From: a virus
DNA length: 38,361 bases
Reading direction: 5' to 3' (one strand)
Virus record (IMG/VR): IMGVR_UViG_3300024343_000039
Positions within the stretch are counted from its first letter, which is position 1, and each line of letters begins with the position of its first letter. The position numbers and the translations under genes are program-made. The notes under the pieces are model-generated. The model did no database searches and was not told the origin of the DNA. It was given only the letters and a program-made list of their open reading frames with translations. Positions 1-38,361 of this stretch are shown here, piece after piece.

Positions 1-127
1 CATGCCATAAAACTCCTTGTCTATAGCCAGCCTGCTTCGCGACCTCATCCACCATCATCTGCTGTGCCTCCACATCACCAGACTCGACAGCTTTCATGTA
101 GTCGGAGTCTAGTTTCTCTGGCATGAA
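1..127. repeat. Terminal direct repeat, left copy (exact duplicate of 38235..38361)
   Basis: The string catgccataaaactcc...ctctggcatgaa is read identically at both ends of the window. The repeat falls in the middle of a coding frame. Confidence 0.95.
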
Positions 128-3100
128 CCTCTTCTGAGCCTCATACATTCCAGCGTGAGTGGTTTCCAATCCTTTTGCCTTGTCCCACAACCAGTGGTGC
201 GTGACATGCGCCCACACATCCCGTGGCACTTTCTGCCCACCTTCTGCAACACCTTGCAATAGACTAATGCTATTGTCGATTCGATTGAACATCTCCTCTC
301 GGACACGCTTGTCGCTAAATGTATCTTTTACCTTTCTCGCTAGATCTGCTTCCTTTGTCTTTAATGTTCCAACATCCGCTTTGCCAGTGAGCCAGAAATT
401 GATTTCAACTGCATCAATTGTCGGGGTGTTTCCAAGACCAAGAAGATGACTAATAAATCCCTTTTTCCCGGTGCTTACTCCATTCAGCAACTGTACAGCA
501 TCCAGCACCTGTTTGCTTTTCCCTTTGCTTTGGTTTAATTGATCAACTACCACGGGAATTTTTGACAGGTTTTTGTCTGAAAACACATTGAATGTTTTAA
601 ACCTATCATCGCCATATGCTTTTCTTACTTGTACCAGACCATCCCAGTCGGAAGCTGATGTAGTTCCAGCTTCTGCATTATCAAGTGCTACTTTACCCTC
701 TGGTGTTCCCAACCAATAAGCCGCAGCCTCCTCTGGTCTAATAGTCTTTTGTCCTGACTTGCCAGTATCAGTGAACAGGTCAGGAGGATTGAAATCAATT
801 CCTACCTTTGCTAGTTTGTCTCGCAATAGATCAACGCTAACAGCACCAGTTCCCTGTGATGCAACGGTCATTGCATACGCCTTCCACACATCTCTTGGGG
901 TCAATGATCCAGAGACCAATTTCTCTCGTTGTTTAGCAATGAAGTCTGCTACTGGAGTTAAATATTCTGGAAATGGGCCTAGTATTTTTGCCGCCATTTT
1001 CCTCGGAATAAAGTTCGTAGAATCCAATTCTTGCAATACCTCTGTTGGTGTTGCTTTTGAACCCTCAGGCATGAACCTCATCTGCGATGATACAGTGACT
1101 TGCTCTGGCTCCATCCACCCGATAGCATCCGCAGGATACGACTCCAGCATCGCCTTGGATGTGATGGGAATCAGCTTCTCATCCATCTCGTTGATCGCAA
1201 ACATCTGCTTGCCGTCTGCCCATCGTCCTTGAGCCTCCTGGGCGTTGGCTACGGGGTTGAGGTCTTCTGGGGAGATGCCCTCTGGCATGAAGCGGGTGGG
1301 GGTCTGCTCACCCTCTGGCATCGCTCGCTGGGCTTCTGGCATGCGGACTTGGCTTACTGCCTCGTAGCTGAACGGCATTGCTGCGTATTCGTCTGGTGAC
1401 ATTGGAATAGCCTTGCTGACGCGATCTGCACGGTAGGTGCGGTAGACATTGTCAGAGCTTTTCACACCATCCTCCAGAAGCATTGGGTTGAGGACAGCTT
1501 GCTCCTTCCTGTTGAGTAGACCAAACATCGTATTGATGAACTTCTTGCGCTCAGTTCCCTCGACCACACCATACTTTTGATTGAAATGCAGAATGCTGTC
1601 CTCTGTAGGACGGTTAAGATGGAAGTCCATCATCGCCTGTACATCTTGCAAAATAGCGTCAATATTTCCGCTGTACAGCTTCTTGCCACGCTTGCTCTGT
1701 GCGCGTTTCTTGATGTTCTCCTGAAGCTTGGTCACGGACATGAGTCCGTACAGGATGTTGCCGTCCTTGGAGATCGTCATCGCTACTGGCACAGCGTCAC
1801 GAATAGCTGCCTTCTGCGGAGCGTAGACCACCTTGCCAGACTTTAGGCGGGTGGTTGCAGGGAAGTTAATCATCACCATGCGCTGACCATCGCCCTGCTT
1901 GATAAGCTTGTTGGTCTGGCGAATCATCCGCTTCTGCTCGTTGTTGAACTTGTGCTTGGCTAACATCTCCGTCAGCACAGCATCTGACAACCAACCGGGT
2001 TGCAGCTCGCCCTCGTCGTCCACATACGCCTCACCCTTCTCTGGGACATAGTTGGACTCTCGACGCTTACGCATTGCCTCCACAGCGGTCAGACCAGCCA
2101 TTGCCCGGTCGATGTCCACCGATTTGTCAATGAAGACTGGTCGCCCGTCCTTGAGGATTGGCTTGTCGTTCTCATCCACTTGGATGAACGGGTGCATCAA
2201 CTCCATGTCGATTGCGTTAGCGGGATCGAACATGAGCGGTGCGCCAGAACCTTCCTTGTCGCTGATAAGCGGTTCAAACTGCCCCGGCATCACGCCAGAA
2301 CTGCGCCTGTTCATCTCACGGAACATCTTGTTGGCAATTGGGTTCTGCCTGATACCCTCCGCTCCCAAGATTCCATTGCCAGTAACCCACGCACCATCCT
2401 TGTCGATCATGCCACCGCTCTTGATGTGGAGGTCACGCAGGACGGGAATCTTAGGCAGTACAGTCTCCAGCACCGATCCAAGCTTTTTGCGAACTTCACC
2501 ACGGGCGGCAAGCGCACCAAGCTCACCAGTCTCTGCCATTGTCGCGTACTGGTCTGCGTGCTGGTCGATGAAGTATTCGACAGCAATCTTGTCGAGTGGG
2601 TACTCAACTCCAATTTCAGCATCGGTCATACCAGAGTCGCGGAGCCGCTTGTAGTAACCCTCCTTAAACTGGTTGAATTCTGGGTCAAGGTTTCCATCCT
2701 TTGACCTAAATAAACCGCCAACCGAGTTAGTCTTGGTATCACCCAAGAAAAGGGCTGCGATACCACCCTCCATGTTGTTCTTGATTAGCGTGTGGTGAAG
2801 CGTTTCGTGTGCCACCAATGCCTTTAGAGGGTTGTTGGAGTTGATGTTGATATTGGCGGTATTTGTGTTGATGTCGTAACCGCTGGTTCCAGAGTCAATA
2901 AAATTGTAGTTTAGAGTCGGGTTGGCAATGGAGTAAGTTGCCATCGACCTGCGAACCCCCGGAGGCAATGCCTCGTACAATGCCTTCTGTTTGGTGTCAG
3001 TTAGGTTGCGCCTGAAGTTAATCTCATCACCGATAGCAAGCTCGCGCATGCGCTTCTTGGTTCCCATGAACGCTCCACCACCTGCTGCAAATGATCCACC

Positions 3101-5167
3101 AATAACCAGTGATTCAGCCGCCGCACGGGTCATGGTTTCAGGGCGCATGTCAGCACCATCCGAAAGCCACTCAAACATGAGGTCTACGGGATACGCTGCG
3201 GCTATACCACGACCAGTTCTGCGGATGATGTCAGATGTCGCACCACCAAGCTCAAAGATATTAAATGTGTGGGCAATACCACGACCAAGAGATCCCGGTG
3301 CTGTATGTCTGTTAACACGCTTCCAGAATGGCATCTGTCCACGCGCATTTTCCATCTCCTTGCCAACATAGCGTAAAATCTTGCCGTACTCGGAGAGAAA
3401 CTTGCCAGTCTTGAGTGCAGCACCAGTGATGCCAATAGCACCAACCACTGGATTGCCTGCAAGTCCCACAATACCAGAGGCTCCAAGTGCTGCGTTGTAA
3501 GCCTGATCAAGACCACGATCCTTTAGATAATTAGTCACAGCATCATCAACCTTGGTGAGGGTATCACCAGTGCGTTCTAGAATGGAGCTAAAAGCCCTTG
3601 CTGGGGCGGATTGAATCCTGCGCCCAAGTTCTGTGGTCTGCATGACCTTCTGGGCATATCCCTCTGGGATGCGAGTAGCCAAGCTGTTGCGCTTTGCGGT
3701 CAACTCCTCCAGCGTACTCATTGCGGTTGGCATGGCGGCACGAACCTCGTCGGCACTAGCCGTGATTTTCCTTGCCTTATCCAGCACCTCGTTGGCTTGC
3801 ACCATAAGCTCTGGGTTTGCAGCAGACCTCGCCGAAATGTTCTGGAAGAGTTGCTGGTATCGTGGAACAAACAATGCCTCCTTCTTTAGAACTGCATTTC
3901 CAGCCTGCACAACAGCTTGAACATCTGCCAATGCAGATTCTGTTTTTGCCACACTCCCAAGTATTTTTTGTGCTCCAAGCTCCAAGCGTGATGCCAATGG
4001 AACAGACCCTGCTACCTTGAATGCAACACTTGCTGGGATAAGATTGATTGGATCAAATGCAAGTTCAGAAAAGGCTCCTACACCAGCATATCTCTTGTTA
4101 AATGCCTCTTCTCCAAGTGTGTTCTTAGCCTCTTGTGCCATGTTAACCGCGCCATCAAGACCAAGCACTGTCTCAGCAATCTGACCAACCTCAAAACTTT
4201 GAATGTCTCGATTCTGTTTCCATTGCCTTTGACGAGCGGCATACAAATCTCGTTCAGCCTCTGCGTCTTGTTGTTTCAGTGCCTCAACACCTTGGGTGTA
4301 CATTGGGACACCACCCGGCCCAACCATAGCAACATCTCCCTGTTGAAGTGTATCTGCAAGCGCAGCATATCCGACATCAGCTAGTCTTCCAATGTTAGCG
4401 AAATTCGTTGTGATTTTCTCAATGGCAGCAAGTTGATTTGCTTGAACTTCAGCTTGTAGCTTTTTACCTTCAGGTGTTCCAGTAAGCACATCAATTGCAC
4501 CCTTGACGCTCATGGCTTTTCCAGCTGTCTTGAAGTAGTCTCTAAATCCTCCAATTGCATCTGCCATAAAACCACCAGCAGCCTCAAGTTGCTCATCCCA
4601 AGTGGCACTTGGACGAATTACACCATCCTTCCACAAGACCTCAAACGCATCAAGGTTGGTTTCGTTCTCAAGGTCACGCTCGGACATTGAATACGCCTGA
4701 CCCTTTTTGGTCATCGTCCCGTCTTCGTTAAAAAGCCCGGACTCCTTTAGGTTGAAGAAAAGCTCTCCGCGAGGTGTGGCGTTGCCCTCGGCATCCACAA
4801 ACCCAATTGCCTTAAACTTGTTTCTGTCCAGAGGTTGAGAGAACAACTCGTTAGCGTTGCGATAGATCGTTCCGTCCTGCATCCGAAGTGCATCAACCTC
4901 AACGCGCCTAGCCTCGGCTTGAGGGTCAATAGATACCATGTCGGCAGGCTCCTGTTGCCTTAACTGTTCATATGCCCCTACAATGTCTGGAGCTTGTGCC
5001 TCCTCACCAACGGCAATTGGTTGGTTATACTCTTCCTGAAGAGTGTCGCTTACCTCAAGCTCGGTCTGACCAAGTGTTCTTGTAACATCAGAAAATAAAA
5101 GATCAATTCCGCTTTTTGCGTTTTTGTAAAATTCTGGCTTGTCTTCTTCTCGTACATTGATGGACAT
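1..5167 (-). CDS. Giant polyvalent virion/ejection protein, 5' part (codons 1-1722 of about 2401; open at the window edge, continues at 38234)
   Basis: Hand translation of the minus strand from ATG 5167 (MSINVREEDKPEFYKNAKSG...) has no stop down to base 1. It is missing from the ORF track only because it has no stop inside the window. All plus-strand ORFs here look like antisense shadows. Confidence 0.85.
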   Translation of the reverse strand, partial: MSINVREEDKPEFYKNAKSGIDLLFSDVTRTLGQTELEVSDTLQEEYNQPIAVGEEAQAPDIVGAYEQLRQQEPADMVSIDPQAEARRVEVDALRMQDGTIYRNANELFSQPLDRNKFKAIGFVDAEGNATPRGELFFNLKESGLFNEDGTMTKKGQAYSMSERDLENETNLDAFEVLWKDGVIRPSATWDEQLEAAGGFMADAIGGFRDYFKTAGKAMSVKGAIDVLTGTPEGKKLQAEVQANQLAAIEKITTNFANIGRLADVGYAALADTLQQGDVAMVGPGGVPMYTQGVEALKQQDAEAERDLYAARQRQWKQNRDIQSFEVGQIAETVLGLDGAVNMAQEAKNTLGEEAFNKRYAGVGAFSELAFDPINLIPASVAFKVAGSVPLASRLELGAQKILGSVAKTESALADVQAVVQAGNAVLKKEALFVPRYQQLFQNISARSAANPELMVQANEVLDKARKITASADEVRAAMPTAMSTLEELTAKRNSLATRIPEGYAQKVMQTTELGRRIQSAPARAFSSILERTGDTLTKVDDAVTNYLKDRGLDQAYNAALGASGIVGLAGNPVVGAIGITGAALKTGKFLSEYGKILRYVGKEMENARGQMPFWKRVNRHTAPGSLGRGIAHTFNIFELGGATSDIIRRTGRGIAAAYPVDLMFEWLSDGADMRPETMTRAAAESLVIGGSFAAGGGAFMGTKKRMRELAIGDEINFRRNLTDTKQKALYEALPPGVRRSMATYSIANPTLNYNFIDSGTSGYDINTNTANININSNNPLKALVAHETLHHTLIKNNMEGGIAALFLGDTKTNSVGGLFRSKDGNLDPEFNQFKEGYYKRLRDSGMTDAEIGVEYPLDKIAVEYFIDQHADQYATMAETGELGALAARGEVRKKLGSVLETVLPKIPVLRDLHIKSGGMIDKDGAWVTGNGILGAEGIRQNPIANKMFREMNRRSSGVMPGQFEPLISDKEGSGAPLMFDPANAIDMELMHPFIQVDENDKPILKDGRPVFIDKSVDIDRAMAGLTAVEAMRKRRESNYVPEKGEAYVDDEGELQPGWLSDAVLTEMLAKHKFNNEQKRMIRQTNKLIKQGDGQRMVMINFPATTRLKSGKVVYAPQKAAIRDAVPVAMTISKDGNILYGLMSVTKLQENIKKRAQSKRGKKLYSGNIDAILQDVQAMMDFHLNRPTEDSILHFNQKYGVVEGTERKKFINTMFGLLNRKEQAVLNPMLLEDGVKSSDNVYRTYRADRVSKAIPMSPDEYAAMPFSYEAVSQVRMPEAQRAMPEGEQTPTRFMPEGISPEDLNPVANAQEAQGRWADGKQMFAINEMDEKLIPITSKAMLESYPADAIGWMEPEQVTVSSQMRFMPEGSKATPTEVLQELDSTNFIPRKMAAKILGPFPEYLTPVADFIAKQREKLVSGSLTPRDVWKAYAMTVASQGTGAVSVDLLRDKLAKVGIDFNPPDLFTDTGKSGQKTIRPEEAAAYWLGTPEGKVALDNAEAGTTSASDWDGLVQVRKAYGDDRFKTFNVFSDKNLSKIPVVVDQLNQSKGKSKQVLDAVQLLNGVSTGKKGFISHLLGLGNTPTIDAVEINFWLTGKADVGTLKTKEADLARKVKDTFSDKRVREEMFNRIDNSISLLQGVAEGGQKVPRDVWAHVTHHWLWDKAKGLETTHAGMYEAQKRFMPEKLDSDYMKAVESGDVEAQQMMVDEVAKQAGYRQGVLWH
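2795..2809 (-). other. HExxH zinc-metallopeptidase motif (ALVAHETLHHTLI) inside the giant ORF
   Basis: The minus-strand codons CAC GAA ACG CTT CAC lie in the giant ORF frame. Only the short motif is seen. Confidence 0.4.
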
Positions 5168-6567: not shown

Positions 6568-7605
6568 TTAGATGTAGCTATAATTTACATTTCCCCAAGG
6601 GCTTTGTGCGGTTTGCATTCCAGCTCCTCCGCCAGCACCGCCAAAGTTAAATCCACCACCACCCATATTCATTCCAGCACCCATCATGGAGCTTCCAATG
6701 CTACTCCACATTTGTGCCTTTGCTTGTTGGTTGGCGAGGTTGGTCTGGTAGTTCGCTTGGTTTTGTTGGTTCTGCGCTCCAGCAAATTGCTGGGCGAAGT
6801 TAAGCGGCATGTTGTAGTCAAAGTCTCCAGATGACGCAGGGCCAAGTGTGAGTGCCGTCCTGAGATCCTGCTGACCAGCACCATATGACAATGGAGCGTT
6901 ACGCAACGCTTGAAGGCCGGGGTTGGTGTAAAACTCGCCAGCAAGGGCATATGATTGCTTTTCCGCCTGTGCTGCCTCTGCACGCTTCCGTGCCATGATG
7001 TCTTCTCGACCCATTATCTCTGCGGCCATTGCAGAGTTGCCACCAAGGCGACCAGACGCTTGTGCGGATTCTCTAGCGGTCTGCTGGTACATGCGTTGTT
7101 CCTCTGGAGTCACGCCTTGAGCAGATGCCCTTGCCCTAGCTGCCTCCTGCGCTGAACCCTGTACCGCAGCAGCTTGTTCTGGCGAAAGTGCGGCCATGAA
7201 ATCACGGGTCATTCCTGTTTGACCAGTCATTTGAGCCAATTCCTCTGCACGAAGTTGCGCTATAGTTTTTCCAGCTTCACTACCAGTTGTTCTCTGGAGT
7301 GCTTGGAAGCCCGGTTGTCCATTTACCCCGCCAAGGAACTGACCAGTCTGGTCAAACATTTGACCCATTATCTGCGGCCCATACTCAGCACTCGTCTGAA
7401 GTGCCAATGGAATAGCCATAGGATAATAGTTTTGGAAAAGACCAGTAGCTTGCCTTTCAGCAACACTTGGGCCACCTTTTTTACCTCTTTTAAATATATC
7501 AATTGGTGCAGGTGGGCCTCCACCCTTTCCTGCTTGAGATGCACCATATACTGATGCGGCGGCTCCAGCAACTGCTGCCCCACCTCCAATTATCGCCATG
7601 CTCAT
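6568..7605 (-). CDS. Gly/Ala/Gln-rich internal virion protein, 345 aa
   Basis: N-terminal hydrophobic IIGGGAAVAGAAASVYG, low-complexity Q/N/G C-terminus, ATGA overlap with the upstream gene. Confidence 0.6.
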   Translation of the reverse strand: MSMAIIGGGAAVAGAAASVYGASQAGKGGGPPAPIDIFKRGKKGGPSVAERQATGLFQNYYPMAIPLALQTSAEYGPQIMGQMFDQTGQFLGGVNGQPGFQALQRTTGSEAGKTIAQLRAEELAQMTGQTGMTRDFMAALSPEQAAAVQGSAQEAARARASAQGVTPEEQRMYQQTARESAQASGRLGGNSAMAAEIMGREDIMARKRAEAAQAEKQSYALAGEFYTNPGLQALRNAPLSYGAGQQDLRTALTLGPASSGDFDYNMPLNFAQQFAGAQNQQNQANYQTNLANQQAKAQMWSSIGSSMMGAGMNMGGGGFNFGGAGGGAGMQTAQSPWGNVNYSYI

Positions 7606-8180
7606 GGTGTTTCCTCGCTTTCCAAATTTAATGCATGTTTTTCAATTTTAATCATATCGTCAATTGCGTTAATTGTTACAGAACTAGACACATTCTTACT
7701 CCATGCTGGAGCGATATCCTCATTATCCAACAATGGGTTGTGTAGCTTATCTGAAACTGTTTTTACGATCTCGTCTGGATCTGTTATGTTTTCTGGGTTT
7801 GGGTGGAATGTAGTCCATGTGGTATCCCGCTTTACGTGCAGAAACCTTTTGGTTCCGGGTGTGGTAATCCCCATGTAAGGAGCAATGTGTGTTATTGGCC
7901 CATCCGGGGTAATCACATCAACCTCGCCTGTGCTTATTACAAACGGATGCTTTGTGTTGTGAGTAACAGACATCACCAAAGAGCCTGCTGGCATGAATAT
8001 GGTTCTGACGTATAACCCCGGAGTGAAAACATGAGTTAAAGGCAAGTCAATCTTATCATCAGATTTGCACATTACATACTCAATCTTATCCACCTCGCTA
8101 CAGGTAGCGAGTACATCTGGGTCGATGTGTGAAAGGTCAAGGTTCATAAGAGTAATTTCTTTTGCTAGGTGATGGTTCAC
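7602..8180 (-). CDS. Hypothetical protein, possibly beta-barrel (cupin-like), 192 aa (GTG 8180; alternative ATG 8147)
   Basis: The ORF-track start is GTG, overlapping the upstream stop as GTGA. An in-frame ATG lies at 8147. The fold guess rests only on His/Gly-rich beta-strand patterning. Confidence 0.5.
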   Translation of the reverse strand: MNHHLAKEITLMNLDLSHIDPDVLATCSEVDKIEYVMCKSDDKIDLPLTHVFTPGLYVRTIFMPAGSLVMSVTHNTKHPFVISTGEVDVITPDGPITHIAPYMGITTPGTKRFLHVKRDTTWTTFHPNPENITDPDEIVKTVSDKLHNPLLDNEDIAPAWSKNVSSSVTINAIDDMIKIEKHALNLESEETP

Positions 8181-9043
8181 ACAATAAACATTACATTAAC
8201 TTCTTGGAAGTCTAATTCAGCAGCATCGCTTGATCTTACGCACTCCAAAGCAATTTGGGTGGTGGTTTTTGTTGTAGAGTTTGATGATTGACCAACAACT
8301 ACAGCTGCATATGAACTAATATTGTTTCTACCAGACCCAGAGTAAGCGTAATTTGTGTTAGGCATTGCAACTGTAAATGTAATAAGAAACTCTCCTATTG
8401 CTGTTTTTTGAACACTGGATATGTTTCCAGATCCGTAAATAAACCTATTTGTATTTGCCGTGGTGACAGTTCCAGATGTGTCACGGGTCATGTCAAAACT
8501 GACCCAAGCTCTACACCCATAAATTGGCGCGCTTCCAACTGGGTTTGGAATATTGGCACTAGCAAGGAAAACTCCATTTGGAGATGTTATAGAGATTCCA
8601 CCAGATCCAGTTTGCTCGATTGCCATTCCACCATTAGCTCCAGAATACCTAATAATTCTAGCATCGTAGTCTGTCAAGGGATGGACGGAATGAAAGTCAA
8701 TAAGAGAAGCAGTGCTTGTTGTTATTCCAGTTCCAACCTCAACTTGCGGCTGTGAAATGTTAATAGTTCCAGTTACACTATTCCAGCTTGGTCCACCAGC
8801 GAAAAACTTTGCTGGAGTTACTGCGCCATTTGCAATTGCGTCAGTTGTAACCGCGTTAGCTGCAAGTCTGCTTGGAGTAATGGCATTTTGGGAAATTGTT
8901 AATTGCCCAGACGCTACTTCAAGTCCACCACCAGCCAAGCACGCTTGAGATGTCATCACTGTCTCGTCGATGATGTTATTCATCTTCGTGCTAGTGATCG
9001 TATCAGTAGGCGTAAACGTGTAGGTTGTATTAACTGCACCCAT
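8177..9043 (-). CDS. Tail fibre / receptor-binding protein, 288 aa
   Basis: N-terminus TFTPTDTITSTKMNNIID and repeated AITPSRLAANAVTTDAIANGAVTPAKF are typical of phage fibre shafts. Ser/Thr/Gly/Asn-rich C-terminal domain; follows the large tail protein. Confidence 0.55.
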   Translation of the reverse strand: MGAVNTTYTFTPTDTITSTKMNNIIDETVMTSQACLAGGGLEVASGQLTISQNAITPSRLAANAVTTDAIANGAVTPAKFFAGGPSWNSVTGTINISQPQVEVGTGITTSTASLIDFHSVHPLTDYDARIIRYSGANGGMAIEQTGSGGISITSPNGVFLASANIPNPVGSAPIYGCRAWVSFDMTRDTSGTVTTANTNRFIYGSGNISSVQKTAIGEFLITFTVAMPNTNYAYSGSGRNNISSYAAVVVGQSSNSTTKTTTQIALECVRSSDAAELDFQEVNVMFIV

Positions 9044-9047
9044 AAAA

Positions 9048-11534
9048 TTATTTCTGTGAGATGATTTGTCTATTTGTCACTGATCCAGCGACTTTGATTG
9101 AGTTTATCTTGGCCGAACCCTGCGTTCTTGTCAAGATCATGGTTCCTGTATAGCCTCTAATGCCACCAAGTCTGCACCTAATACTAGCCGTTTCGGATTC
9201 TGAAGCGTTTGGTGATGATAATATCTCTCCATTTAGGAATGTAGTGGTGGTTCCAATTGACTCAGCGTTGTCTGGGTCTTCAGAAGCAAACTCAATTAAG
9301 TATTCAGAGCTTTGATTTGGAAGACCCTGCATTGTGATTTGTGCATCAGTGTACCTTTTGCGCTCCATAGTCTGCAAATCATAGCCACGTGTGGTTAGTT
9401 TTGCTAAAACAGGAGAAGATGTCTTTTCGTCATTGATATTCGACACGCTAATACTGTCGTTTTCACTATCAAAAGCCTCCAGTTGGTGCAATCCACCGTT
9501 AGCGGTGACTGCATACAGGTTGTTTCTCACACCTGCGCTTCCAACAATAAGGTCTTCGATCAAGAATCTTGAATCTCCAAAGGTATCTAGCGATTCCCAT
9601 CCACCATTTAAAAAGTTGTACACCAAAATTGAGTTATTTCCGCGAGCGTCATTGATTCCGGGTGCGGAATCCAACGGAACTGCAAGGTAATACCTGTTGT
9701 CGAATAGCATTCCAACTGACTTATTGGACAAGTCCTTGTTGAGCCTGTCAATATATGGCTGGATGTCTTTGGAAATTGGCTCCTCGGCCCCACGAAGGTT
9801 GTAATCGTTTAGGAATTCAACACTGTAAACACCATCGTCGGATAGGAACATCATGGTGTTAGCCCTCATCACTACAGACTTACGAGCCAAACACCCAACC
9901 TCGGAGGTTAGCTCTGTAACGCTGGTGTCCAACAGACTTCCTTGTGTTCCTTTAATCTGATGCAGGCTATTTCTGTTGAGAACGATCAATCGGTCCTCGT
10001 AGAACCCATGCATTCCAACCACATAGTCGGCAGTACCACCGCTAATTCGGAACTGATTTTCAATCTGGTCGAATGTAGTTGTGTCTAAAATGTCGGAAAC
10101 AGCAATCTCGTCGGTGATCTTGCGGTCAGTATAGGTGGCTGCGTTATATGCTCCTGACTGGTCGTAGTAATACGGAACCCACAGGCGGCGTTGGAAGTGA
10201 ATTCCCCAAGGAGCACCCGGCTGGTGCATAAATCCACCACCCACGCTGAACTGACCACCAAACTCAATTTGTTGTGATCCTGTTGCGGTGAAATTGGCTA
10301 CTGGAGCAATAAATTTAATGTTGCTGGTTGAAGCAAATGATACCTGAAAGTCTTTTCCAACAATCGCTGAAAATTCAGGAACGGTGCTTTCATAAACATG
10401 AATTACGTCTCCAGCAAAAACAGTGCTGTTAGAAGTAGTTAGGCTTATAGATACTTCGCCATTTAACGCCGTAATGTTTGGACCAACCCCAGTAAATACC
10501 TGCGGCTGCGTATATGCTCCTCCGGGAGAGAACGTAAAACCATCTGTAATAGTCGCAACATCGACATTGAATGTGACATTCTGAGGTGCGCCAGTAACTG
10601 TTATTTGGAACGTGTCTTGTCCAGTAACTGTTCCAACGGTCTGCGTTCCGTTAGGTGGTGTGCCACCAGTTAGACCAGCAACCGTAATGCTTGTTCCAGT
10701 TACCAACCCATGCTCTCGCATGCGAATGGTGACAATGTTGCCAGCAACGCCAACGGTCCCGTTGTTCTGCACCGCTGAAATGATCGGCCTGCCATTGGGA
10801 TACCATTCCAGTGCCTGTTTGCCATCGCGGAACAGCATCACCTTGTCGAACACCTGAATCATGTCTGTGTCCTCACCTAAGGCAGTTCCAGCAGGATACG
10901 GAATGTTCTCTGGGACGTAAGCAATGTTTGCCTCAACCTGAGCCAAATCAATCTTCTTTGCCACCGTATCCAACGCGACAATCACATACTCCTTGTTGTT
11001 GGTATTTGGGTCGCTGAACAAGCAGGACGCACGAACATTAGCGTTAGCGTTGTCGTTGATCGGCATCTGGGATAATGTGCCAGTGCCAGAGACAGCAGTA
11101 ACTCCAGTAACTGGGAAGCTTAACTGGTTGGCTGAGACATACGTCAGAATCTTGGCTCCGTTATTGTTAGTGCCAGTAAAGGTCAAACCAGCAACTACGG
11201 CATGCCCACTAGAACCAATCTCAAATCCATGATTTGCAGACATGGTGATGGTCACCACGTTAGATGCATATGATGCAGACGAAATAGTCTTTGCAACGTC
11301 AATCAGGTAGAACGGCAACTGCAATGGATCACCACCAACTGTGAGCGCACCAGTCCTAGACACTACCACCTTGCGGGGCTTCCAGTATCCTTCCATGCGT
11401 CCGTTCAGGGACTCGCGCACTTCTCCGGGCTTTAGCTGGTTGAGTTGTAACCGCTGGTTAACGCCAGCAAATCCACGATCTCCATCCTCGGAAATCGAGT
11501 CGTCCATCCCGCCCGTGGACCGAAATTGCGACAT
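9048..11534 (-). CDS. Large tail structural protein, 828 aa (possibly nozzle / tail-tubular-B-like)
   Basis: Size and position. The N-terminus GVNQRLQLNQLKPGEVRESLNGRMEGYWKPRK resembles the conserved N-terminus of podovirus tubular protein B. Contains 2-3 internal repeats of a small beta domain. Confidence 0.4.
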   Translation of the reverse strand: MSQFRSTGGMDDSISEDGDRGFAGVNQRLQLNQLKPGEVRESLNGRMEGYWKPRKVVVSRTGALTVGGDPLQLPFYLIDVAKTISSASYASNVVTITMSANHGFEIGSSGHAVVAGLTFTGTNNNGAKILTYVSANQLSFPVTGVTAVSGTGTLSQMPINDNANANVRASCLFSDPNTNNKEYVIVALDTVAKKIDLAQVEANIAYVPENIPYPAGTALGEDTDMIQVFDKVMLFRDGKQALEWYPNGRPIISAVQNNGTVGVAGNIVTIRMREHGLVTGTSITVAGLTGGTPPNGTQTVGTVTGQDTFQITVTGAPQNVTFNVDVATITDGFTFSPGGAYTQPQVFTGVGPNITALNGEVSISLTTSNSTVFAGDVIHVYESTVPEFSAIVGKDFQVSFASTSNIKFIAPVANFTATGSQQIEFGGQFSVGGGFMHQPGAPWGIHFQRRLWVPYYYDQSGAYNAATYTDRKITDEIAVSDILDTTTFDQIENQFRISGGTADYVVGMHGFYEDRLIVLNRNSLHQIKGTQGSLLDTSVTELTSEVGCLARKSVVMRANTMMFLSDDGVYSVEFLNDYNLRGAEEPISKDIQPYIDRLNKDLSNKSVGMLFDNRYYLAVPLDSAPGINDARGNNSILVYNFLNGGWESLDTFGDSRFLIEDLIVGSAGVRNNLYAVTANGGLHQLEAFDSENDSISVSNINDEKTSSPVLAKLTTRGYDLQTMERKRYTDAQITMQGLPNQSSEYLIEFASEDPDNAESIGTTTTFLNGEILSSPNASESETASIRCRLGGIRGYTGTMILTRTQGSAKINSIKVAGSVTNRQIISQK

Positions 11535-26039: not shown

Positions 26040-27038
26040 TTAGGAATAAGCGATCTTGCCGTGTGCTTGTGGGTGTTTGACAACCAGCGTGCCAGCAACG
26101 TCGATATAACCACGCTCGCCACCACCTTGGTTCTCAAGGCGGGTAGCACCCATCGGGATGAGGGTGTTAAAGCCAAGATACTTAGGATTGATGACATAGC
26201 CAACACCACCAGTGGTGACGGGCATACAAGCTGGATTTGAGTTCACTATTTTCACGATACCAAAATCAGAATCATACACGTTGACAGCGAGCGTGATTTG
26301 CTTGCTGACGGCGTTTTGATTGACATGGTATGTAACACCAGCCGACGAAGGCGTGGCGCGGGTGAAGTTGCTGATCACCCGGCGAAGGGCAACATCGGCA
26401 ACAAGCGTGAGCGAGTTCATCTCACCATTCTTGCTGAAGATCGAACCAATCATACCGTTGAAGGCAGTTTCGGTAGGAGCGGCAGTAAGGATGGAACCAG
26501 TCGGGGTGCGATAGGCAGCAGGAACAGCATTCGTGGCTTGTGCAGAGTCTTGAATCCATTTGCCAAGTCCGCGCATGCCGTAGGGAGTACCAGCACCATT
26601 CTCAACGGTCATTTCGTTGCTGGAGGCGATGGTGGCTTCCACGTCACGCTTGATGCTACGCATAGCCTTAGCTTCAGCTTGGGCAATGTTAGCAGGGCCA
26701 ACGCTCGTCACTGCTTGTTGCAGGTTCGAGACGAGGTAGTCGCGGCGCATGAGTTGGATGTAGTTACCAAGACGGGCACGGTCGGCGAACTGATCGCTGA
26801 ACGAGGTCACGTCAGAACCTTCCGAAACACCAACGGTCACGGGAGCGGCCAAGCTGTCAACAGTCCACTCGGAGTAGGTGCTGGAAGCTTTGCCCTTCGA
26901 CGCGAGCGAAAGGATCGGGGTTTCTTCTGGGGCAAGGATAGCAAGTTCGTTGCTGAGATCCTCGCGGTTGGAGATAGCGGAACCTTGACCCGAACGGGCT
27001 TGGGGCGCATTTGGTTGATATGATGTACTAATAGGCAT
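26040..27038 (-). CDS. Major capsid protein (HK97 fold), 332 aa
   Basis: The N-terminal region REDLSNELAILAPEETPILSLASKGKASSTYSEWTVDSL resembles the conserved N-arm region of HK97-type capsid proteins. Size and scaffold-capsid gene order fit. Confidence 0.75.
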   Translation of the reverse strand: MPISTSYQPNAPQARSGQGSAISNREDLSNELAILAPEETPILSLASKGKASSTYSEWTVDSLAAPVTVGVSEGSDVTSFSDQFADRARLGNYIQLMRRDYLVSNLQQAVTSVGPANIAQAEAKAMRSIKRDVEATIASSNEMTVENGAGTPYGMRGLGKWIQDSAQATNAVPAAYRTPTGSILTAAPTETAFNGMIGSIFSKNGEMNSLTLVADVALRRVISNFTRATPSSAGVTYHVNQNAVSKQITLAVNVYDSDFGIVKIVNSNPACMPVTTGGVGYVINPKYLGFNTLIPMGATRLENQGGGERGYIDVAGTLVVKHPQAHGKIAYS

Positions 27039-27056: not shown

Positions 27057-28100
27057 TTATTGCATTTTTGCAACTCTGGCGGCAATCCAGTCATCAACGG
27101 ATGTTGACGATTGAAACTTTTGATAGGCTTGATCGGCACTCTTCTTCGCTGTTTTAGGCCCAGACTTAGCGGCTCCAGCACCATACGGGGTTCCCGGCAC
27201 TTTGGCCTTGGAGATTGTTCCCGCTGCTTTTACTGCTACTTTGGACTTCTGACTGCGATGAATGGATCGGACTGCGTGGGCTAGAATGTATGGGAGTTGC
27301 GGCCCAAGGTCTGGAACATGCAGGTTAACCAGCTCAACGAGTGGGTCAGCTAGGAGTGCCTTGTATTGTTTACCAATATCAGATTCCTCGTCGGCAACCT
27401 CTGGGACTTCCTGCGGGATCAATCCCGTGAAGTGTTCCCGCGCCTGCTCGCGTTGTCCTCGTTTGGCGAGTTCCGCGTGTTGGGCTGGGAGGTATTTTGC
27501 CATTGCCTCCCGCGCATTGCGGTTAGCTCGACGGATCTCCTTTTTGGTAAACTCCTTGTCTCCCACGACGATGATGTCTTCGGCACCGTAGTCTTCGTGT
27601 TCCTCAAGGATATTGTCGGTTTCCTGCGCGACCTTCTCCAGCTCCGCAAACTTGGACTGAAGACCCTCCACAGACTCAATGTCTCTGAATGGGTTTTCTT
27701 CCTGCGGTATGACTGGTAGTGGTTTCGTTTGGGCCTGAGAACTCAGCTTTTCCTCAAGAGCTTTTTTCTGCGCGGTCAACTCACCCACGCGATGGAGCAA
27801 CCTGCTGCGACTCTTTTTGGCTAAAGCTTGAAGTTGCTCTGGGTTTAGCGACAACAAGTCTACTTCCTGTTCCTCTTCGCCTTCTTCCTCTTCTACTTCC
27901 TCGTCGGACTCATCTAGTTCGTCGGAAACTGCCTCTGGCTCCAGAGACTCTTCCGTTTCCTCCCAAGATTCATCCTCTGGTTCAGCAGCCTCGGCTTCTG
28001 GTTCAGAGATTTCCTGACTCCTTCGATTGATATAATCATCAAAAGATATGTTAGACGAGGGATTTTGGGCTTCCTCGGTAGCCTCGGATTGCACATTCAT
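27057..28100 (-). CDS. Scaffolding protein, 347 aa from ATG 28100
   Basis: Highly acidic N-terminal third (EPEAEAAEPEDESWEETEESLEPE...), helical, immediately upstream of the capsid gene. The listed start at 28145 is TTG. Confidence 0.6.
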   Translation of the reverse strand: MNVQSEATEEAQNPSSNISFDDYINRRSQEISEPEAEAAEPEDESWEETEESLEPEAVSDELDESDEEVEEEEGEEEQEVDLLSLNPEQLQALAKKSRSRLLHRVGELTAQKKALEEKLSSQAQTKPLPVIPQEENPFRDIESVEGLQSKFAELEKVAQETDNILEEHEDYGAEDIIVVGDKEFTKKEIRRANRNAREAMAKYLPAQHAELAKRGQREQAREHFTGLIPQEVPEVADEESDIGKQYKALLADPLVELVNLHVPDLGPQLPYILAHAVRSIHRSQKSKVAVKAAGTISKAKVPGTPYGAGAAKSGPKTAKKSADQAYQKFQSSTSVDDWIAARVAKMQ

Positions 28101-28141
28101 GTTTTTGACACCAGTTAACGCCCGGCGGCGGCGATGACCTA

Positions 28142-28170
28142 GCAATGTGGAGGGAGTTAATATAAGTCAA
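28142..28170 (-). promoter_or_regulatory. Promoter-like element TTGACT-N17-CATTGC containing TAACTCCCTCC (copy B of the shared element)
   Basis: Shares TTGAC-NN-AT-NN-TAA-N-TCCCTCC-N-CATT with 11837-11865. Lies 42-70 nt upstream of scaffold ATG 28100. Confidence 0.45.
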
Positions 28171-28180
28171 CAATGGGGGC

Positions 28181-28206
28181 GTATAGGTGTGGATAGGTGT
28201 GGACAG
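28181..28206 (-). promoter_or_regulatory. Tandem DnaA-box-like 10-bp repeats (minus strand CTGTCCACAC CTATCCACAC CTATAC)
   Basis: CTATCCACA matches the DnaA box TTATCCACA at 8 of 9 positions and CTGTCCACA at 7 of 9. The repeats are head-to-tail with 10-bp phasing. Confidence 0.5.
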
Positions 28207-28276
28207 CTATATGTAAGAAACAATGTGTAGTTTTTCTGACGAAAATCGTGTGGTGTTTTTGCGTTTGCTTTGGATG

Positions 28277-28305
28277 TTGACTTGCGGGGAAACCCCAACT
28301 AGGAT
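28277..28305 (+). promoter_or_regulatory. Plus-strand sigma70-like promoter TTGACT-N17-TAGGAT
   Basis: Hexamers at 28277-28282 and 28300-28305 with a 17-nt spacer that contains GGGGAAACCCC. Confidence 0.35.
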
Positions 28306-28311
28306 TCGCCT

Positions 28312-28416
28312 CGACGGGAGTTGGAATCATCGTCATAAATCACCCCTCCAGCTTAAAACACTGGCTCTTCTGGGACTGGTCGAGTATCCAACTCCTCGAC
28401 CAGTCCCGTTGTTTTT
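28312..28416 (+). ncRNA. Candidate plus-strand small RNA of about 105 nt (predicted TSS to terminator)
   Basis: Bounded by the promoter above and the 13-bp-stem terminator. Nothing convincingly protein-coding lies on the plus strand here. Confidence 0.3.
28372..28416 (+). terminator. Plus-strand rho-independent terminator
   Basis: GGGACTGGTCGAG-10 nt loop-CTCGACCAGTCCC followed by GTTGTTTTT. There is no U-tract in the minus-strand orientation. Confidence 0.65.
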
Positions 28417-28794
28417 ACCCAAGGTGCTGGTGACATATTCAAGGAATCGAGGAACGCTCAAACGACCGAACGAAACCTAGGTAAAAGTCTCACGGGTACT
28501 GCGCTTGATGAATTTGCGGCGCAGTTAAACAGAGTGTGACGACCAAGGAGCTTGACGCAGACCTACAGCCTCAGCCCTCTGCTATCCTTGGTTCCAGCCT
28601 TGCTGGTATGTAAATCGACCTTTCCGACGATATACGGGAGTTAGAAGCATAGTACTCGCCGCATAAGGCGAACTATGCCTACGAGCCTTCCTCCTCAGCC
28701 GGGAGTTGGGGTATGTGCTAATGTATCAAAAAAGGTACAAAAACCGTCCTAATTGTCCTATATTCCCGCAGTTATGAAGTAACGCTTAATAGCT

Positions 28795-28836
28795 GAAAGA
28801 AAACACCCTTGATAGGGATTGAACCTACCAAGGGTG
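28795..28836 (-). terminator. Minus-strand rho-independent terminator
   Basis: On the minus strand: CACCCTTGGTAGG-TTCAATC-CCTATCAAGGGTG (13 bp including one G-T pair) followed by TTTTCTTTC. Confidence 0.7.
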
Positions 28837-28879
28837 AACCAATGAAACAATGAAACAAGAAGCACAAAACAAGCTTCCT
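28795..28879 (-). ncRNA. Candidate minus-strand small RNA of about 85 nt
   Basis: Near-consensus promoter upstream, a 5' hairpin (28857-28879), a single-stranded tandem GUUUCAUUG repeat, then the terminator. Confidence 0.3.
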
Positions 28880-28884
28880 GCTGA

Positions 28885-28913
28885 AATGTAGTTTGGGAGT
28901 TAACCCGTGTCAA
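28885..28913 (-). promoter_or_regulatory. Minus-strand sigma70-like promoter TTGACA-N17-TACATT
   Basis: Perfect -35 at 28908-28913, a 17-nt spacer and a 4-of-6 -10 at 28885-28890. Lies directly after the stop of the 68-aa ORF. Confidence 0.4.
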
Positions 28914-28917
28914 GCTA

Positions 28918-29124
28918 TCAGAACATCATCGCGGCGGCCACACCGGGAGGCAACTGACGATATGTGCTTGACGATTGTGTACCGCGAGCCTTGTTGGCGA
29001 TTACGGGTGGGCGAGTTGCCATCCCACTAGGTGGACGAGGGGCGCTATATGCTGACTGACCACCCATTGGTTTTTTTCCTGACTTTTTAGGCATCGTTGC
29101 CATTGCTGCTGCTAATTCCATCAT
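28918..29124 (-). CDS. Small basic Pro/Ala/Gly-rich protein, 68 aa
   Basis: ORF in line with the upstream genes; low-complexity basic composition. Confidence 0.4.
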   Translation of the reverse strand: MMELAAAMATMPKKSGKKPMGGQSAYSAPRPPSGMATRPPVIANKARGTQSSSTYRQLPPGVAAAMMF

Positions 29125-29148
29125 AATATTATTTTGTGTTGTGTTGTG

Positions 29149-29364
29149 TTATTCGGGTTGTGGGGAGATTAGTGTCAGTAGTTCATCCAGCGTAGCAACG
29201 CTACCTACGACCTTCATGACATCGTTGGTGGACTCGCACTGGCGGAGGTCTGAGAAGAACCGCTCACGCTCGTCCCGGACAAACTGGACGATCGCCTTAA
29301 ACTCATCGCGTTCTGCAAGTGCTTCTACGGATTGCTGGATAGTTGGTTTTGGTAGTGGTGTCAT
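29149..29364 (-). CDS. Hypothetical protein, 71 aa
   Basis: ATG-initiated ORF with helical composition; ATGA-type overlap with the upstream gene. Confidence 0.55.
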   Translation of the reverse strand: MTPLPKPTIQQSVEALAERDEFKAIVQFVRDERERFFSDLRQCESTNDVMKVVGSVATLDELLTLISPQPE

Positions 29365-29705
29365 TTGAATGGGCTTAGTTTCTTGGTAAGTCTCATCTTG
29401 GCGTGCTCAATAGCCTTCTGCATAATTGTTTCTGGAATTGGCTTTTTGTTTGGGATAATGTCATTTTGCATTAGGGCTACCTCATTCTTGCTCAAAGTTG
29501 GAACAAGTGTGGGAAAGTCAATTTGCTTACCATCAACCTTTACGGCCCCACTCTGAGTGGAATACTCAGTAGCAACGCTTCCGTTTGGCAGTTTCAGCTC
29601 GCCAAGGTAACCCTGCCCCTTTTGGGTCTTGTCTGGTCTTTTTCCGTATTTAACCAATGGGAGATTAAACCCCATTTTTTGCTGTGGTGGATTTAAGGAT
29701 GGCAT
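29361..29705 (-). CDS. Hypothetical protein, 114 aa
   Basis: The GYLGELKLPNGSVATEYS...DFPTLVPTLSKNEV pattern looks like a conserved phage family, but I cannot name it. Confidence 0.55.
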   Translation of the reverse strand: MPSLNPPQQKMGFNLPLVKYGKRPDKTQKGQGYLGELKLPNGSVATEYSTQSGAVKVDGKQIDFPTLVPTLSKNEVALMQNDIIPNKKPIPETIMQKAIEHAKMRLTKKLSPFK

Positions 29706-29734
29706 TGGTTGTGTTTTGGTAGTGGTGTCATTGG

Positions 29735-29917
29735 TTACTTCTTCTTCATGCCCATAGCGGACATGGCGATGGCGATTGCTTGCTTGCGACTCTGCGCCAG
29801 TGGGGCTTTCTTTGAGCCTTTGGGATTGCGGCCCGCATGGAGTGTTCCAGACTTGTATTCACCCATCACTTTTGCTACTTTCGCTTGCTTGGCGGATTTG
29901 GTCTTTGGTGTCTTCAT
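29735..29917 (-). CDS. Small basic protein, DUF6496-like, 60 aa
   Basis: VMGEYKSGTLHAGRNPKGSKKAPLAQSRKQAIAIAMSAMG resembles the VMxEFKxGxLxSG...QAIAIALSEA pattern. Confidence 0.4.
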   Translation of the reverse strand: MKTPKTKSAKQAKVAKVMGEYKSGTLHAGRNPKGSKKAPLAQSRKQAIAIAMSAMGMKKK

Positions 29918-29924
29918 GGTAACA

Positions 29925-30167
29925 TCATTTCATGCTTTTATCACCTTTGCAACGCCACTTCTTACGTGATAATGCGTTGGGTGAGTTAGGGTCTGACTTC
30001 CAGTCACCCTTAATTTTTGCTGAACGAGCGCAGTAGGCATCACCCTTCTTAGTGCCGGGTCGGATGCGATCCTTACCGTCAGCGGACTTACCCGCCTGCC
30101 CAAAGCGCACGGTCTTCTTGCGACCAGTATCGGGGTTGGTGACGATTTTTTTGAAACGCTTTTCCAT
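29925..30167 (-). CDS. Small basic protein, 80 aa from ATG 30167
   Basis: The listed start is TTG; an ATG lies 2 codons downstream. Lys/Arg-rich with two Cys. Confidence 0.5.
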   Translation of the reverse strand: MEKRFKKIVTNPDTGRKKTVRFGQAGKSADGKDRIRPGTKKGDAYCARSAKIKGDWKSDPNSPNALSRKKWRCKGDKSMK

Positions 30168-30169
30168 TT

Positions 30170-35932: not shown

Positions 35933-35945
35933 GGTGGTTGTCTGG

Positions 35946-36195: not shown

Positions 36196-38361
36196 TCACT
36201 TCAGATTCTTTAGCTTTTCGATCTCGTTTGCAAGAGCATTTTCTTCGCTTTTTACCTCTTCGATCTGACTTTTGATCGTTTTTTCTGCGCTTTTATTTTC
36301 AGCCGTGGCAATTGACGCAGTCAAACTCTGGATTTTTTTCTGTCTCGCTGACAATTTCGACTTGAGCTTTTGAATTTCCTTTTGACGCAACTCTTTGGCT
36401 TTCTGCTTCTTGAGCCTCAATTCTCTATTTTCAGCAATTTTGCTAAGTTTGGCCTTCGTGTATTTTTCCACCTTCAATGGAATTTCTGCGTACTTTTTCA
36501 TGGCTCCAAGAACAGTTTCTTCGGAACCTTCTTTGACGCTCGCTTTGGGGTGTTTTGACCTATAGTCCGGGAATAACTCTTCTGGCTTTAATGTAGAAGA
36601 TGCAAGGAAGTTGTCTGCATTATCTGGGCCAAGCATCATCCAGTCAAACGCTTCATGTTCAACAAAATCAGGATTAGCTCTCAATGCATCTCTAACTTGT
36701 TTTTCTTGTGGAGACATTGCTGCTTCCTCTTTAGGATCATTGCCAAAGTATACAGCGAAAATATCTTTGTTTTTAGATAATTGAACCGCTCCAACAATAT
36801 CCATATTCTCACCTCCCTTGAAATCTTCTGTTTTACGAAGAATATCGGATGGGTTAAATGATCCAGCGGTAATTCCAATAAGCCCCTTGATTGCAGCACC
36901 TCTGGACTGGAATGTATTTCCAATGTTGTCCATGATTGCTAAAGAAGATGATTTCTCACTTAATTTTTTGAACGCGTACTCATGTTCTGTATTTTTATTC
37001 AAATAATCGCGCAACCTTTGTTTGGAATTATCAAGTGCTTTTTGAGTGCCGTTATTGTTATCAAGTCTTGTTTGTGCTGTTTTGATTTTTGAAATCAATT
37101 GAGCTATTTCAGCGTCAATTCCAGTCCAAGACAATGCATCTCTATCGGCAAACAAGCTTTGAATGTTAGCTTTGATTTTTTGAGATTCGATATCAGAAAG
37201 ACTTTCATCTTTTAATTTGTTTTGTTGCTGTTGAATCTTAACTGAAATTGAGCTTTTCTGTTGCGCTGTAATTGCGGCCTGCATAGCAACTGACACTACT
37301 CTCTGATCGTACTCTGATAGTTTTGCCTTATCCCAAGCTGCTTGCATTGTTCTGGCAATTCGTTTATTAGATGCGTGAGCAATTGGATCCATGATGTGGA
37401 TCAAGGCATATTCCGCATTGTCATTAAACCATCTATTTTTTGTTCCAGTAACAAATGTTGATGTCATGTTTGCCCAAATAGCTTTGTATTTCTTTCCGTC
37501 TGGGCCTACAACTGATACTTGATTTGACCGCAAGAATGGGTGCATTGGCCCACCCATATCCCCACCAGTTGCTCTCATCCTGTCAGCTTCTAGGATAATA
37601 ACATTTTTTCCAGCAAGCGTTTTGCGTAAATCTTTAAACTCCGGCCTCACGAGATATGCTGGGTCATAGTTAAAATACATTCTTTCCCCATTTGGGTGCT
37701 GGATATAAACCTTGGCTGGTTTACTATAATCAAATTCTCCTTCATTTGCTTCAAAGTTAATTACAGTTGAGTCAATGTCTGGAATGGTGTCAGTTCGTGA
37801 TAGTGGTTTTTTTGTTGGCACATCACCCTCAGGCATATACCGAATATCCTTACTCCCCACATCAAACCGCTTGCTCAACGGGATGACTTTGCCAGAGTCG
37901 TCGCGGGTGATTGGGTCTGCGGATTTGATTTGGTTGGAATCAAATACAATAAATTCTTGTTTCCCCGCATTAGTTTGCGGGGTTCCAATTACTGAATCAT
38001 ACCCTTGTTTTTGAATCTCTTTTTTGCGTGCTGGTGTAATTGCAGAATAAGAATAATCACCAGCATCAAGAATCAATGGATTATCCATTTTAAGATAAGC
38101 ACCTAAAACATTACTACCCATTGCACTAGCAATGTTTTTATCTGGTGAGAAATAATGACCTACACTACCTTCCATCCAAGGTAGTCTATCTCCTTTAGTT
38201 TCATCAAAAACCGTAAATTTTTTACCTCTTGATCCATGCCATAAAACTCCTTGTCTATAGCCAGCCTGCTTCGCGACCTCATCCACCATCATCTGCTGTG
38301 CCTCCACATCACCAGACTCGACAGCTTTCATGTAGTCGGAGTCTAGTTTCTCTGGCATGAA
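36196..38361 (-). CDS. Giant polyvalent virion/ejection protein, 3' part (listed as a 720-aa ORF; in frame with 1..5167 across the terminal overlap)
   Basis: ATG 38358 is the same base as ATG 124, which is an internal Met of the 5167 frame (5167-124 = 3 x 1681). The frame is still open at 38361. TGA stop at 36196-36198. Lys/Glu-rich coiled-coil-like C-terminus. Confidence 0.85.
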   Translation of the reverse strand, partial: FMPEKLDSDYMKAVESGDVEAQQMMVDEVAKQAGYRQGVLWHGSRGKKFTVFDETKGDRLPWMEGSVGHYFSPDKNIASAMGSNVLGAYLKMDNPLILDAGDYSYSAITPARKKEIQKQGYDSVIGTPQTNAGKQEFIVFDSNQIKSADPITRDDSGKVIPLSKRFDVGSKDIRYMPEGDVPTKKPLSRTDTIPDIDSTVINFEANEGEFDYSKPAKVYIQHPNGERMYFNYDPAYLVRPEFKDLRKTLAGKNVIILEADRMRATGGDMGGPMHPFLRSNQVSVVGPDGKKYKAIWANMTSTFVTGTKNRWFNDNAEYALIHIMDPIAHASNKRIARTMQAAWDKAKLSEYDQRVVSVAMQAAITAQQKSSISVKIQQQQNKLKDESLSDIESQKIKANIQSLFADRDALSWTGIDAEIAQLISKIKTAQTRLDNNNGTQKALDNSKQRLRDYLNKNTEHEYAFKKLSEKSSSLAIMDNIGNTFQSRGAAIKGLIGITAGSFNPSDILRKTEDFKGGENMDIVGAVQLSKNKDIFAVYFGNDPKEEAAMSPQEKQVRDALRANPDFVEHEAFDWMMLGPDNADNFLASSTLKPEELFPDYRSKHPKASVKEGSEETVLGAMKKYAEIPLKVEKYTKAKLSKIAENRELRLKKQKAKELRQKEIQKLKSKLSARQKKIQSLTASIATAENKSAEKTIKSQIEEVKSEENALANEIEKLKNLK
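37909..38331 (-). other. ADP-ribosyltransferase-like module inside the giant ORF
   Basis: Helical lead-in KAVESGDVEAQQMMVDEVAKQAGY, then VLWHGS...FTVFD...GHYFSPD...AYLKMDNP...GYDSVIG...QEFIVFDSNQIKSA. This gives H / Y / E spacing and the QIKSA ending I recall from ART domains of phage and plasmid polyvalent proteins. Confidence 0.5.
38235..38361. repeat. Terminal direct repeat, right copy (exact duplicate of 1..127)
   Basis: Same 127-nt string as bases 1-127. Consistent with the overlap left when a circular or terminally redundant assembly is linearised. Confidence 0.95.

Follow-up and report, generated by a model that had tools for sequence, protein, structure and literature searches.

A short R-[FY]-M-P-E motif marks the module boundaries of a giant polyvalent protein in an uncultured phage

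A recurrent motif in a giant phage protein

We analyzed a stretch of viral DNA of 38,361 nucleotides (IMG/VR record IMGVR_UViG_3300024343_000039; hereafter the window), which carries on its minus strand an open reading frame (ORF) for a giant protein of 2,401 amino acids (aa). This protein belongs, as a new member, to the known class of polyvalent proteins, and a short motif, R-[FY]-M-P-E, recurs at the boundaries of its modules. As a junction element, the motif is located in disordered linkers, is under selection at the level of the peptide, and marks both the cassette boundaries and the seams along which cassettes are exchanged. We infer that it is also a cleavage site. Proteolytic processing, as proposed for the motif in an initial annotation made from the sequence, is a plausible role and the one we prefer; we put at about even chances that the motif is the punctuation of a cargo-carrying virion protein, recognized and cut by a site-specific endopeptidase.

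The tripeptide M-P-E is present exactly six times, with its methionine at aa 1276, 1283, 1294, 1366, 1682 and 1856, that is, always beyond aa 1274. The contexts are, in order, VRMPEA, RAMPEG, TRFMPEG, MRFMPEG, KRFMPEK and IRYMPEG. The composition of the protein predicts 0.24 occurrences (Poisson P = 2e-7), and six or more were reached in none of 20,000 shuffles. The recurrence is therefore correct and far beyond chance, and the initial annotation, which gave these contexts and positions and expected well under one copy, matches our count and coordinates. MPE is the most over-represented tripeptide of the giant protein and PEG the second; within the genome, R-x-M-P-E is confined to this ORF. 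A chance or compositional recurrence, for which only the shortness of the motif speaks, is refuted by the probability given above, by the conservation of the motif at the junctions, orthologous or paralogous, of more than 100 proteins, and by the breakpoint data presented below; it retains practically no credence.

The protein is organized as a body (aa 1-1278; 1334..5167), two short segments of 7 and 11 aa, and the modules m0, m21, ADP-ribosyltransferase (ART) and m3, all encoded on the minus strand. Every cassette except the last, as well as the body, terminates in one copy of the motif, and three copies stand in tandem at the joint between body and cargo. The first of these, VRMPE (aa 1274-1278; 1334..1348), is at the position of the body-end motif K-x-N-h-[MLF]-P-x of cargo-less relatives; it is followed by RAMPE (aa 1281-1285; 1313..1327) and RFMPE (aa 1292-1296; 1280..1294). 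The fourth copy, RFMPE (1064..1078), ends m0 (aa 1297-1368; 1064..1279), a small domain present in 21 homologues. The fifth, RFMPE (116..130), ends m21 (aa 1369-1684; 116..1063), a helical domain. The initial annotation placed this fifth copy at 107-133 and again at 38341-38361; the sequence is right, but the second occurrence is the same copy seen through the duplicated end of the assembly. The sixth, RYMPE (37828..37842), ends the ART module m1 (aa 1685-1858; 37828..38349 in duplicated-end coordinates, equivalent to 37828-38234 plus 1-115). The last module, m3 (aa 1859-2401, 543 aa; 36199..37827), is of unknown function and has a K/E/Q-rich, heptad-like tail ending in ...EIEKLKNLK, with no terminal motif.

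The structure of aa 1250-1900 was predicted with AlphaFold2, using an alignment assembled from module fragments. All six copies are found in coil segments with a predicted local distance difference test (pLDDT) score below 50, between folded domains (model residues 10-50, 107-154, 414-434 and 597-641), and polar residues are enriched in their flanks. Module m0 is modelled with a pLDDT of 73-93, m21 with a moderate fold and the ART module with a pLDDT of 80-94. Foldseek matched the ART model to tankyrase/PARP catalytic domains, ParT and RES toxins. The ART-PolyVal family (Pfam PF18760) was detected at aa 1719-1829 (E = 3.9e-13; 50.8 bits for a cut-off of 31.2), as the sole Pfam domain of the giant protein. 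It is bracketed by motif copies that end at aa 1684 and 1858. Two earlier suggestions thus hold: the copies separate better-structured regions, and one of them immediately precedes an ART-like module.

Module m21 has 40% identity to a module of P0055, a giant protein of another phage contig described below, and 29% to the N-terminus of a protein of phage MW202675. The latter (MW202675.1, 11872-14568) has 898 aa and is annotated as a "type I restriction enzyme", a label that looks doubtful. Its gene directly follows those of the portal and of two further large proteins of the head region; the junction motif is absent there.

Module shuffling and exchange seams

A homologue search covering 5.8 billion proteins returned 54 homologues, which have the first ~54% of the protein in common and then diverge. 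R-[FYLQ]-M-P-E is present in 54/54 of them, and the motif is found up to 11 times per protein. Over the 55 proteins, M-P-E is absent from the first 1,100 aa (0 in 60,500 residues) and occurs 201 times in the remaining 53,328 residues. The logo of 180 unique contexts has R at position -2 in 74% of cases and F, Y or Q at position -1, followed by M-P-E.

When segments were cut after each motif and clustered at a reciprocal coverage of at least 70%, about 37-46 module families were obtained, which recur in varied order and with varied neighbours (m0|m1|m2|m17, m0|m2|m1|m3, m1|m5|m8 or m5|m1|m17, for instance). A Pfam scan of ten representative modules recognized one family, DUF7178. The residues preceding the arginine track the upstream module and those following the glutamate track the downstream one; since each flank follows its own module, the seam consists of the five motif residues themselves. 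The conservation at domain junctions that the initial annotation proposed to look for in homologues is thus observed, and its description of the motifs as conserved linkers at module boundaries agrees with the disordered linkers, with the shuffled cassettes and with the breakpoints.

Breakpoints were located by comparing the variable halves of 40 related genes, taken from IMG/VR loci, in alignments of at least 85% identity. The 379 internal alignment ends lie at a median of 13 nt from a motif and 72% of them within 20 nt, compared with 399 nt and 4.4% for random placement. The 15 nt coding for the motif are the site where related phages exchange cassettes.

Such breakpoints, together with the combinatorial shuffling of modules, are what would be seen if the motif were purely an evolutionary seam for in-frame cassette exchange, like VENN of CdiA, and the peptide had no biochemical role. 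The same breakpoints are expected, however, if only recombinants with intact modules and an intact site survive, and the DNA does not behave as such a seam. The six copies of the window differ in codon use. Over 92 unique DNA contexts, arginine is encoded by CGC (26), CGG (22), AGG (16), CGA (10) and AGA (7), proline by CCA, CCT or CCG and glutamate by GAG or GAA. Homologous recombination needs conserved DNA, yet arginine uses five codons belonging to both of its codon families; the DNA at the border is not conserved and the motif codons vary freely, unlike a seam able to support homologous exchange. This free variation of codons with fixed amino acids indicates that selection acts on the peptide. 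The motif is moreover conserved at the end of cargo-less bodies and in remote lineages whose 23-45% identity leaves no homology at the DNA level. We thus regard a seam without biochemical role as improbable, and an account by DNA repeats or recombination only was rejected as insufficient, since the copies differ in codons while their amino acids stay fixed.

The codon data also bear on the idea that the methionine of the motif is an internal translation start, or the relic of gene fusion, with modules also made separately from M-P-E. The methionine (ATG) is nearly invariant in the lineage of the window protein, and genuine starts of the genome mostly lack a Shine-Dalgarno (SD) sequence (present at 4 of 25), so that the absence of SD at the motif is not decisive. 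However, methionine is replaced by leucine (CTT, CTG, CTC, TTA) in 8 of the 92 contexts and by leucine or phenylalanine in remote relatives, and the upstream R and F/Y are conserved as amino acids. Genuine leaders are A/T-rich, as opposed to the G/C-rich codons that precede the motif, and only 1 of the 79 ATGs within motifs has an SD-like sequence, compared with 9% of the remaining internal ATGs. An internal start is very unlikely in view of these observations.

The conserved body and its HExxH region

The N-terminal body is common to all 54 close homologues and to 210 representative relatives, the latter identified by a full HMMER scan of 1.84 billion representatives. It is best conserved from aa ~450 to ~1270 and is absent from Pfam and PHROGs. 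Its most conspicuous feature is an HExxH motif, HETLH (aa 787-791; 2795..2809, minus strand), preceded by predicted beta-strands. The longer form AHETLHH (about aa 785-791) is invariant across the close family, and HExxH is conserved in remote relatives down to ~23% identity. AlphaFold2 modelled aa 540-1275 poorly (mean pLDDT 44), but three strands followed by the HExxH helix are visible. Neither MPTase-PolyVal nor any LPD family was detected in the giant protein, ART being its only polyvalent domain in Pfam.

Many relatives of the body are only ~1,150-1,200 aa long and end 4-44 aa past a conserved K-x-N-[LFY]-[MLF]-P-x, at the position of the first M-P-E of the window protein. As the motif closes these cargo-less bodies at an equivalent position, we consider it to be the ancestral end of the body, each cargo cassette bringing its own copy. 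Cargo could then arise by insertion of module-plus-motif cassettes after a pre-existing site.

Proposed cleavage at the motif and the docking alternative

An endopeptidase acting at the motif would part the cargo modules from the body and from one another, either within the capsid or following ejection into the host, and the ART and other modules would then act as free proteins. The likeliest protease would be within the body itself: its conserved HExxH domain, which is zincin-like and could work either in cis or from one copy on another. Cleavage is favoured by the number of sites, which fits the number of junctions since the last module never ends with a motif, and by the three tandem copies at the main joint between body and cargo. 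It is also favoured by the analogy with viral polyproteins and MARTX toxins, and by the literature, where embedded zincins have been predicted to process polyvalent proteins.

Several observations weigh against this reading. The initial annotation named the embedded HExxH module or a host protease as possible processing enzymes; the HExxH is conserved down to 23% identity, but a peptidase was confirmed neither by Pfam (E up to 10), PHROGs and phmmer or profile searches of the PDB, nor by AlphaFold2, and Foldseek found nothing with the poor model of the region. Five representatives have HExxE instead of HExxH and keep both motif and cargo. The motif also occurs apart from the body: P0055 (contig L002, 1163-8833; 2,556 aa), which has only the m21 and ART modules in common with the window protein, contains ten RFMPE junctions and neither HExxH nor the N-terminal body, and no body gene is present in the readable 18.8 kb of its contig. 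P0055 is a genuine cargo-only protein; its gene has a complete 5' end, and the gene upstream is on the opposite strand. Scans of the 30 ORFs of the window genome with PHROGs and Pfam recognized no prohead protease (assemblin-like, S77/S80), and among 50,697 phage records searched by tblastn with the two body types there was no cultured relative. In cargo-less relatives, where 4-44 aa are left after the motif, cutting would free almost nothing, and the motif may have had another, older role. Lastly, the body-end and cargo-junction forms of the motif agree only loosely within one protein (M/L table 40:9 versus 12:13), a comparison confounded by relatedness.

Concerning the HExxE subclade (P0228 and P0231-P0234, with AHELLES or AHEVLEA), we observed that the body end K-A-N-Y-M-P-[ED] is kept along with the cargo modules. 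Other apparent "cargo-only" proteins, of the P0125 type, were discarded as truncated by contig ends.

The main rival to cleavage is a docking or sorting role, in which the peptide would bind the portal, the capsid interior, a chaperone or the body, and would organize, package or thread a beads-on-a-string protein through the tail; the motif would ancestrally be a C-terminal tag of the body. The cargo-less relatives suit this view well, as they keep the motif with nothing to release, and so does P0055, where the motif exists without an HExxH in cis. The accessibility of the linkers and the peptide-level selection also speak for docking. On the other hand, the last module of cargo-bearing proteins is never motif-ended and has other tails, e.g. 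...AIANAAKLK, and a pattern of n-1 motifs fits junction sites better than a tag that every module needs. No partner was identified, and a tandem of three copies where body and cargo meet is more usual for redundant cut sites. We therefore consider docking possible but rather unlikely.

Concerning the C-terminal tails, many homologues (P0007, P0016, P0018, P0011, P0028, P0029 and others) have a common basic tail, ...KGNASAIANAAKLK, whatever their last module. Variants end in ...SISSVAKMK or ...AGQIRKMKE, and the window protein (36199-36243) ends in ...ALANEIEKLKNLK. This common tail may be a C-terminal signal or anchor.

A wider family of junction motifs

A search with P0055 retrieved 2,467 giant proteins. 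FMP ranks first among over-represented tripeptides in 16 of 118 new giant polyvalent proteins among the matches listed, and at least three [FY]-M-P were found in 37 of 127 proteins examined. Junctions have lineage-specific forms, such as FMPG, FMPS, FMPD and QFMPER. The giant relatives typically have HExxH at aa ~740-800 and the first motif at ~1,280-1,390, with a spacing of ~500-550 aa as in the window protein. Their N-terminal parts are remotely homologous to the body of the window protein, with which they align in profile-profile comparison (hhalign; 98% probability, E = 2e-13, 613 columns), HExxH being aligned with HExxH. Judging from these sequences, R-F-M-P-E is one lineage's dialect of a superfamily-wide [FYL]-[ML]-P junction motif.

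We propose tentatively, and at clearly less than even chances, that the [FY]-M-P motif and the HExxH body form a self-contained load-and-release system in a very large group of uncultured phages, in which inserted domains would be packaged, ejected and cut free by the body's own peptidase. If this were true, polyvalent proteins would gain a defined cleavage code, and their cargo arrays would evolve by cassette insertion at a pre-existing site. The protease and its site would also be a portable pair and a possible tool for the programmed release of fused proteins.

Judged by its capsid protein, Phage C75C1 is the nearest isolate (56% identity). At the same genomic position (L001, OQ984151.1; 38751..7576 over the origin) it encodes a 2,769-aa protein without HExxH. 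The motif Y-x-[LAM]-P-[DE]-F-[NST]-V, present ten times in this protein, was considered as a parallel and rejected, the last six copies being tandem helical repeats of ~65 aa. As the protein has no detectable homology and its motif is part of a helical repeat, it gives no support for the junction motif.

Comparison with known systems

The assignment to polyvalent proteins follows from the ART-PolyVal match. In addition to this signature domain, the protein has 2,401 aa and at least five separable units (body, m0, m21, ART, m3) that recur independently in homologues. Like polyvalent proteins it is giant and multidomain, has an HExxH region and is encoded among virion genes; the evidence on its packaging is this synteny. 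An embedded zincin-like metallopeptidase is frequent in the class without being required. The protein differs in its ~1,280-aa body, which is outside Pfam and PHROGs, and in its recurring junction motif. For the polyvalent proteins of phages and conjugative elements, Iyer, Burroughs, Anand, de Souza and Aravind (2017, PMC5512222) predicted delivery together with the DNA and processing by zincin-like peptidases embedded in them; that work also draws the analogy with viral polyproteins, and names no junction or cleavage-site motif. In the literature searched, a single related experimental observation was met: phage phi24B packages a polyvalent protein of 2,811 aa, gp47, which is proposed to be ejected (bioRxiv 10.64898/2026.04.10.717836).

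The phage protein also resembles several other systems in part.

MARTX toxins have a conserved delivery region and a recombining array of effectors, whose unstructured linkers are cut by an internal protease after delivery. The phage protein likewise has a conserved region followed by a variable array of modules separated by linkers. The MARTX protease, however, is a cysteine protease activated by inositol hexakisphosphate that cuts after leucine, and MARTX are secreted bacterial toxins acting on eukaryotic cells. In the phage system the putative protease is instead a zincin-like HExxH, the junctions read R-F-M-P-E, and the protein would enter its target by ejection from the virion; cleavage itself is what we infer.

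Viral polyproteins have conserved junction sites as well, e.g. Q/G for picornavirus 3C or those of potyvirus NIa. As in the giant protein, a short conserved peptide is found at every joint of unrelated domains in one translation product. They belong to eukaryotic RNA viruses, however, with unrelated proteases and fixed modules, whereas the phage cassettes are shuffled.

Polymorphic toxins have demarcation motifs, VENN in CdiA and DPxGL in Rhs. Here as there, a short conserved peptide separates a constant region from C-terminal modules that can be exchanged, and the breakpoints of recombination fall on that peptide. There is one such border per toxin, compared with up to 11 here, and the DNA coding for the phage motif is not conserved.

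Prohead-protease sites are the last comparison. In phage T4 the site of gp21 is L/I-x-E, and gp21 processes the ART Alt and internal proteins. The hydrophobic-x-Glu form is found again in our motif, in a protein with an ADP-ribosyltransferase that probably travels with the DNA. The middle proline and the conserved R-F upstream fall outside the consensus sites, that of phiKZ and SPN3US being [SAG]-x-E (PMC10052503). A prohead-protease site was rejected, no such protease being recognized in the genome. Sortase (LPxTG) and type IV prepilin (G/FTLIE) motifs were likewise discarded, as their residues differ and there is no sorting context.

A full-text literature search for FMPE gave irrelevant matches only. 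The literature searched appears to contain no description of the junction motif, of the way it coincides with recombination seams, or of its location where the conserved, likewise undescribed body of ~1,200 aa ends. Polyvalent proteins are thought to be the first weapons injected by a phage, and the route from a chain of 2,000-4,000 aa to many enzymes has so far only been guessed; the motif is a concrete and testable target for the processing hypothesis. It is also a practical rule for dissecting polyvalent proteins, as cutting at it recovers about 40 families of cargo modules, which may be anti-defence or takeover effectors. Module shuffling is seen here with breakpoints resolved to a 15-nt seam.

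Genome context

The genome is circular, of ~38,234 bp. The window has an exact 127-bp terminal direct repeat (1-127 = 38235-38361), as expected of a circular assembly or of a terminally redundant genome, and the giant ORF spans this junction. Nearly all genes of the 38,234-bp genome are carried by the minus strand. The giant ORF starts at ATG 5167, runs to position 1 (1..5167; aa 1 to ~1722), continues over the circular junction and resumes from 38234 to 36199 (aa ~1723-2401), with its stop at 36196-36198, so that its second part is 36196..38234; 38235-38361 duplicates 1-127.

Other genes were identified with PHROGs and Pfam. They include the large terminase (33439-35037), a probable small terminase (35393-35968), the major head protein (26040-27038), only 332 aa long, and tail-fibre and tail-appendage proteins (7602-11534). 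Genes for replication and recombination form a further block, with a DnaB-like helicase, a replication initiator, Erf and an exonuclease. The giant gene is placed between the tail genes and the terminase genes. The cargo-less relative P0191 has an identical layout, and its capsid protein matches Pfam SU10_MCP.

Of 25 minus-strand gene starts (6103, 27038 and 33014 among them), only 4 have an SD-like sequence, and the leaders are A/T-rich. Such low usage hints at a host with little need of SD, for example one of the Bacteroidota. Finally, between the putative portal (30939-33014) and the putative scaffold (27057-28145), the region 28150-30933 contains an ORF of 221 aa and several small ones, none of which matches a family. 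The matching gap in Phage C75C1 is occupied by a single 76-aa gene, so that this region may be an accessory insertion.

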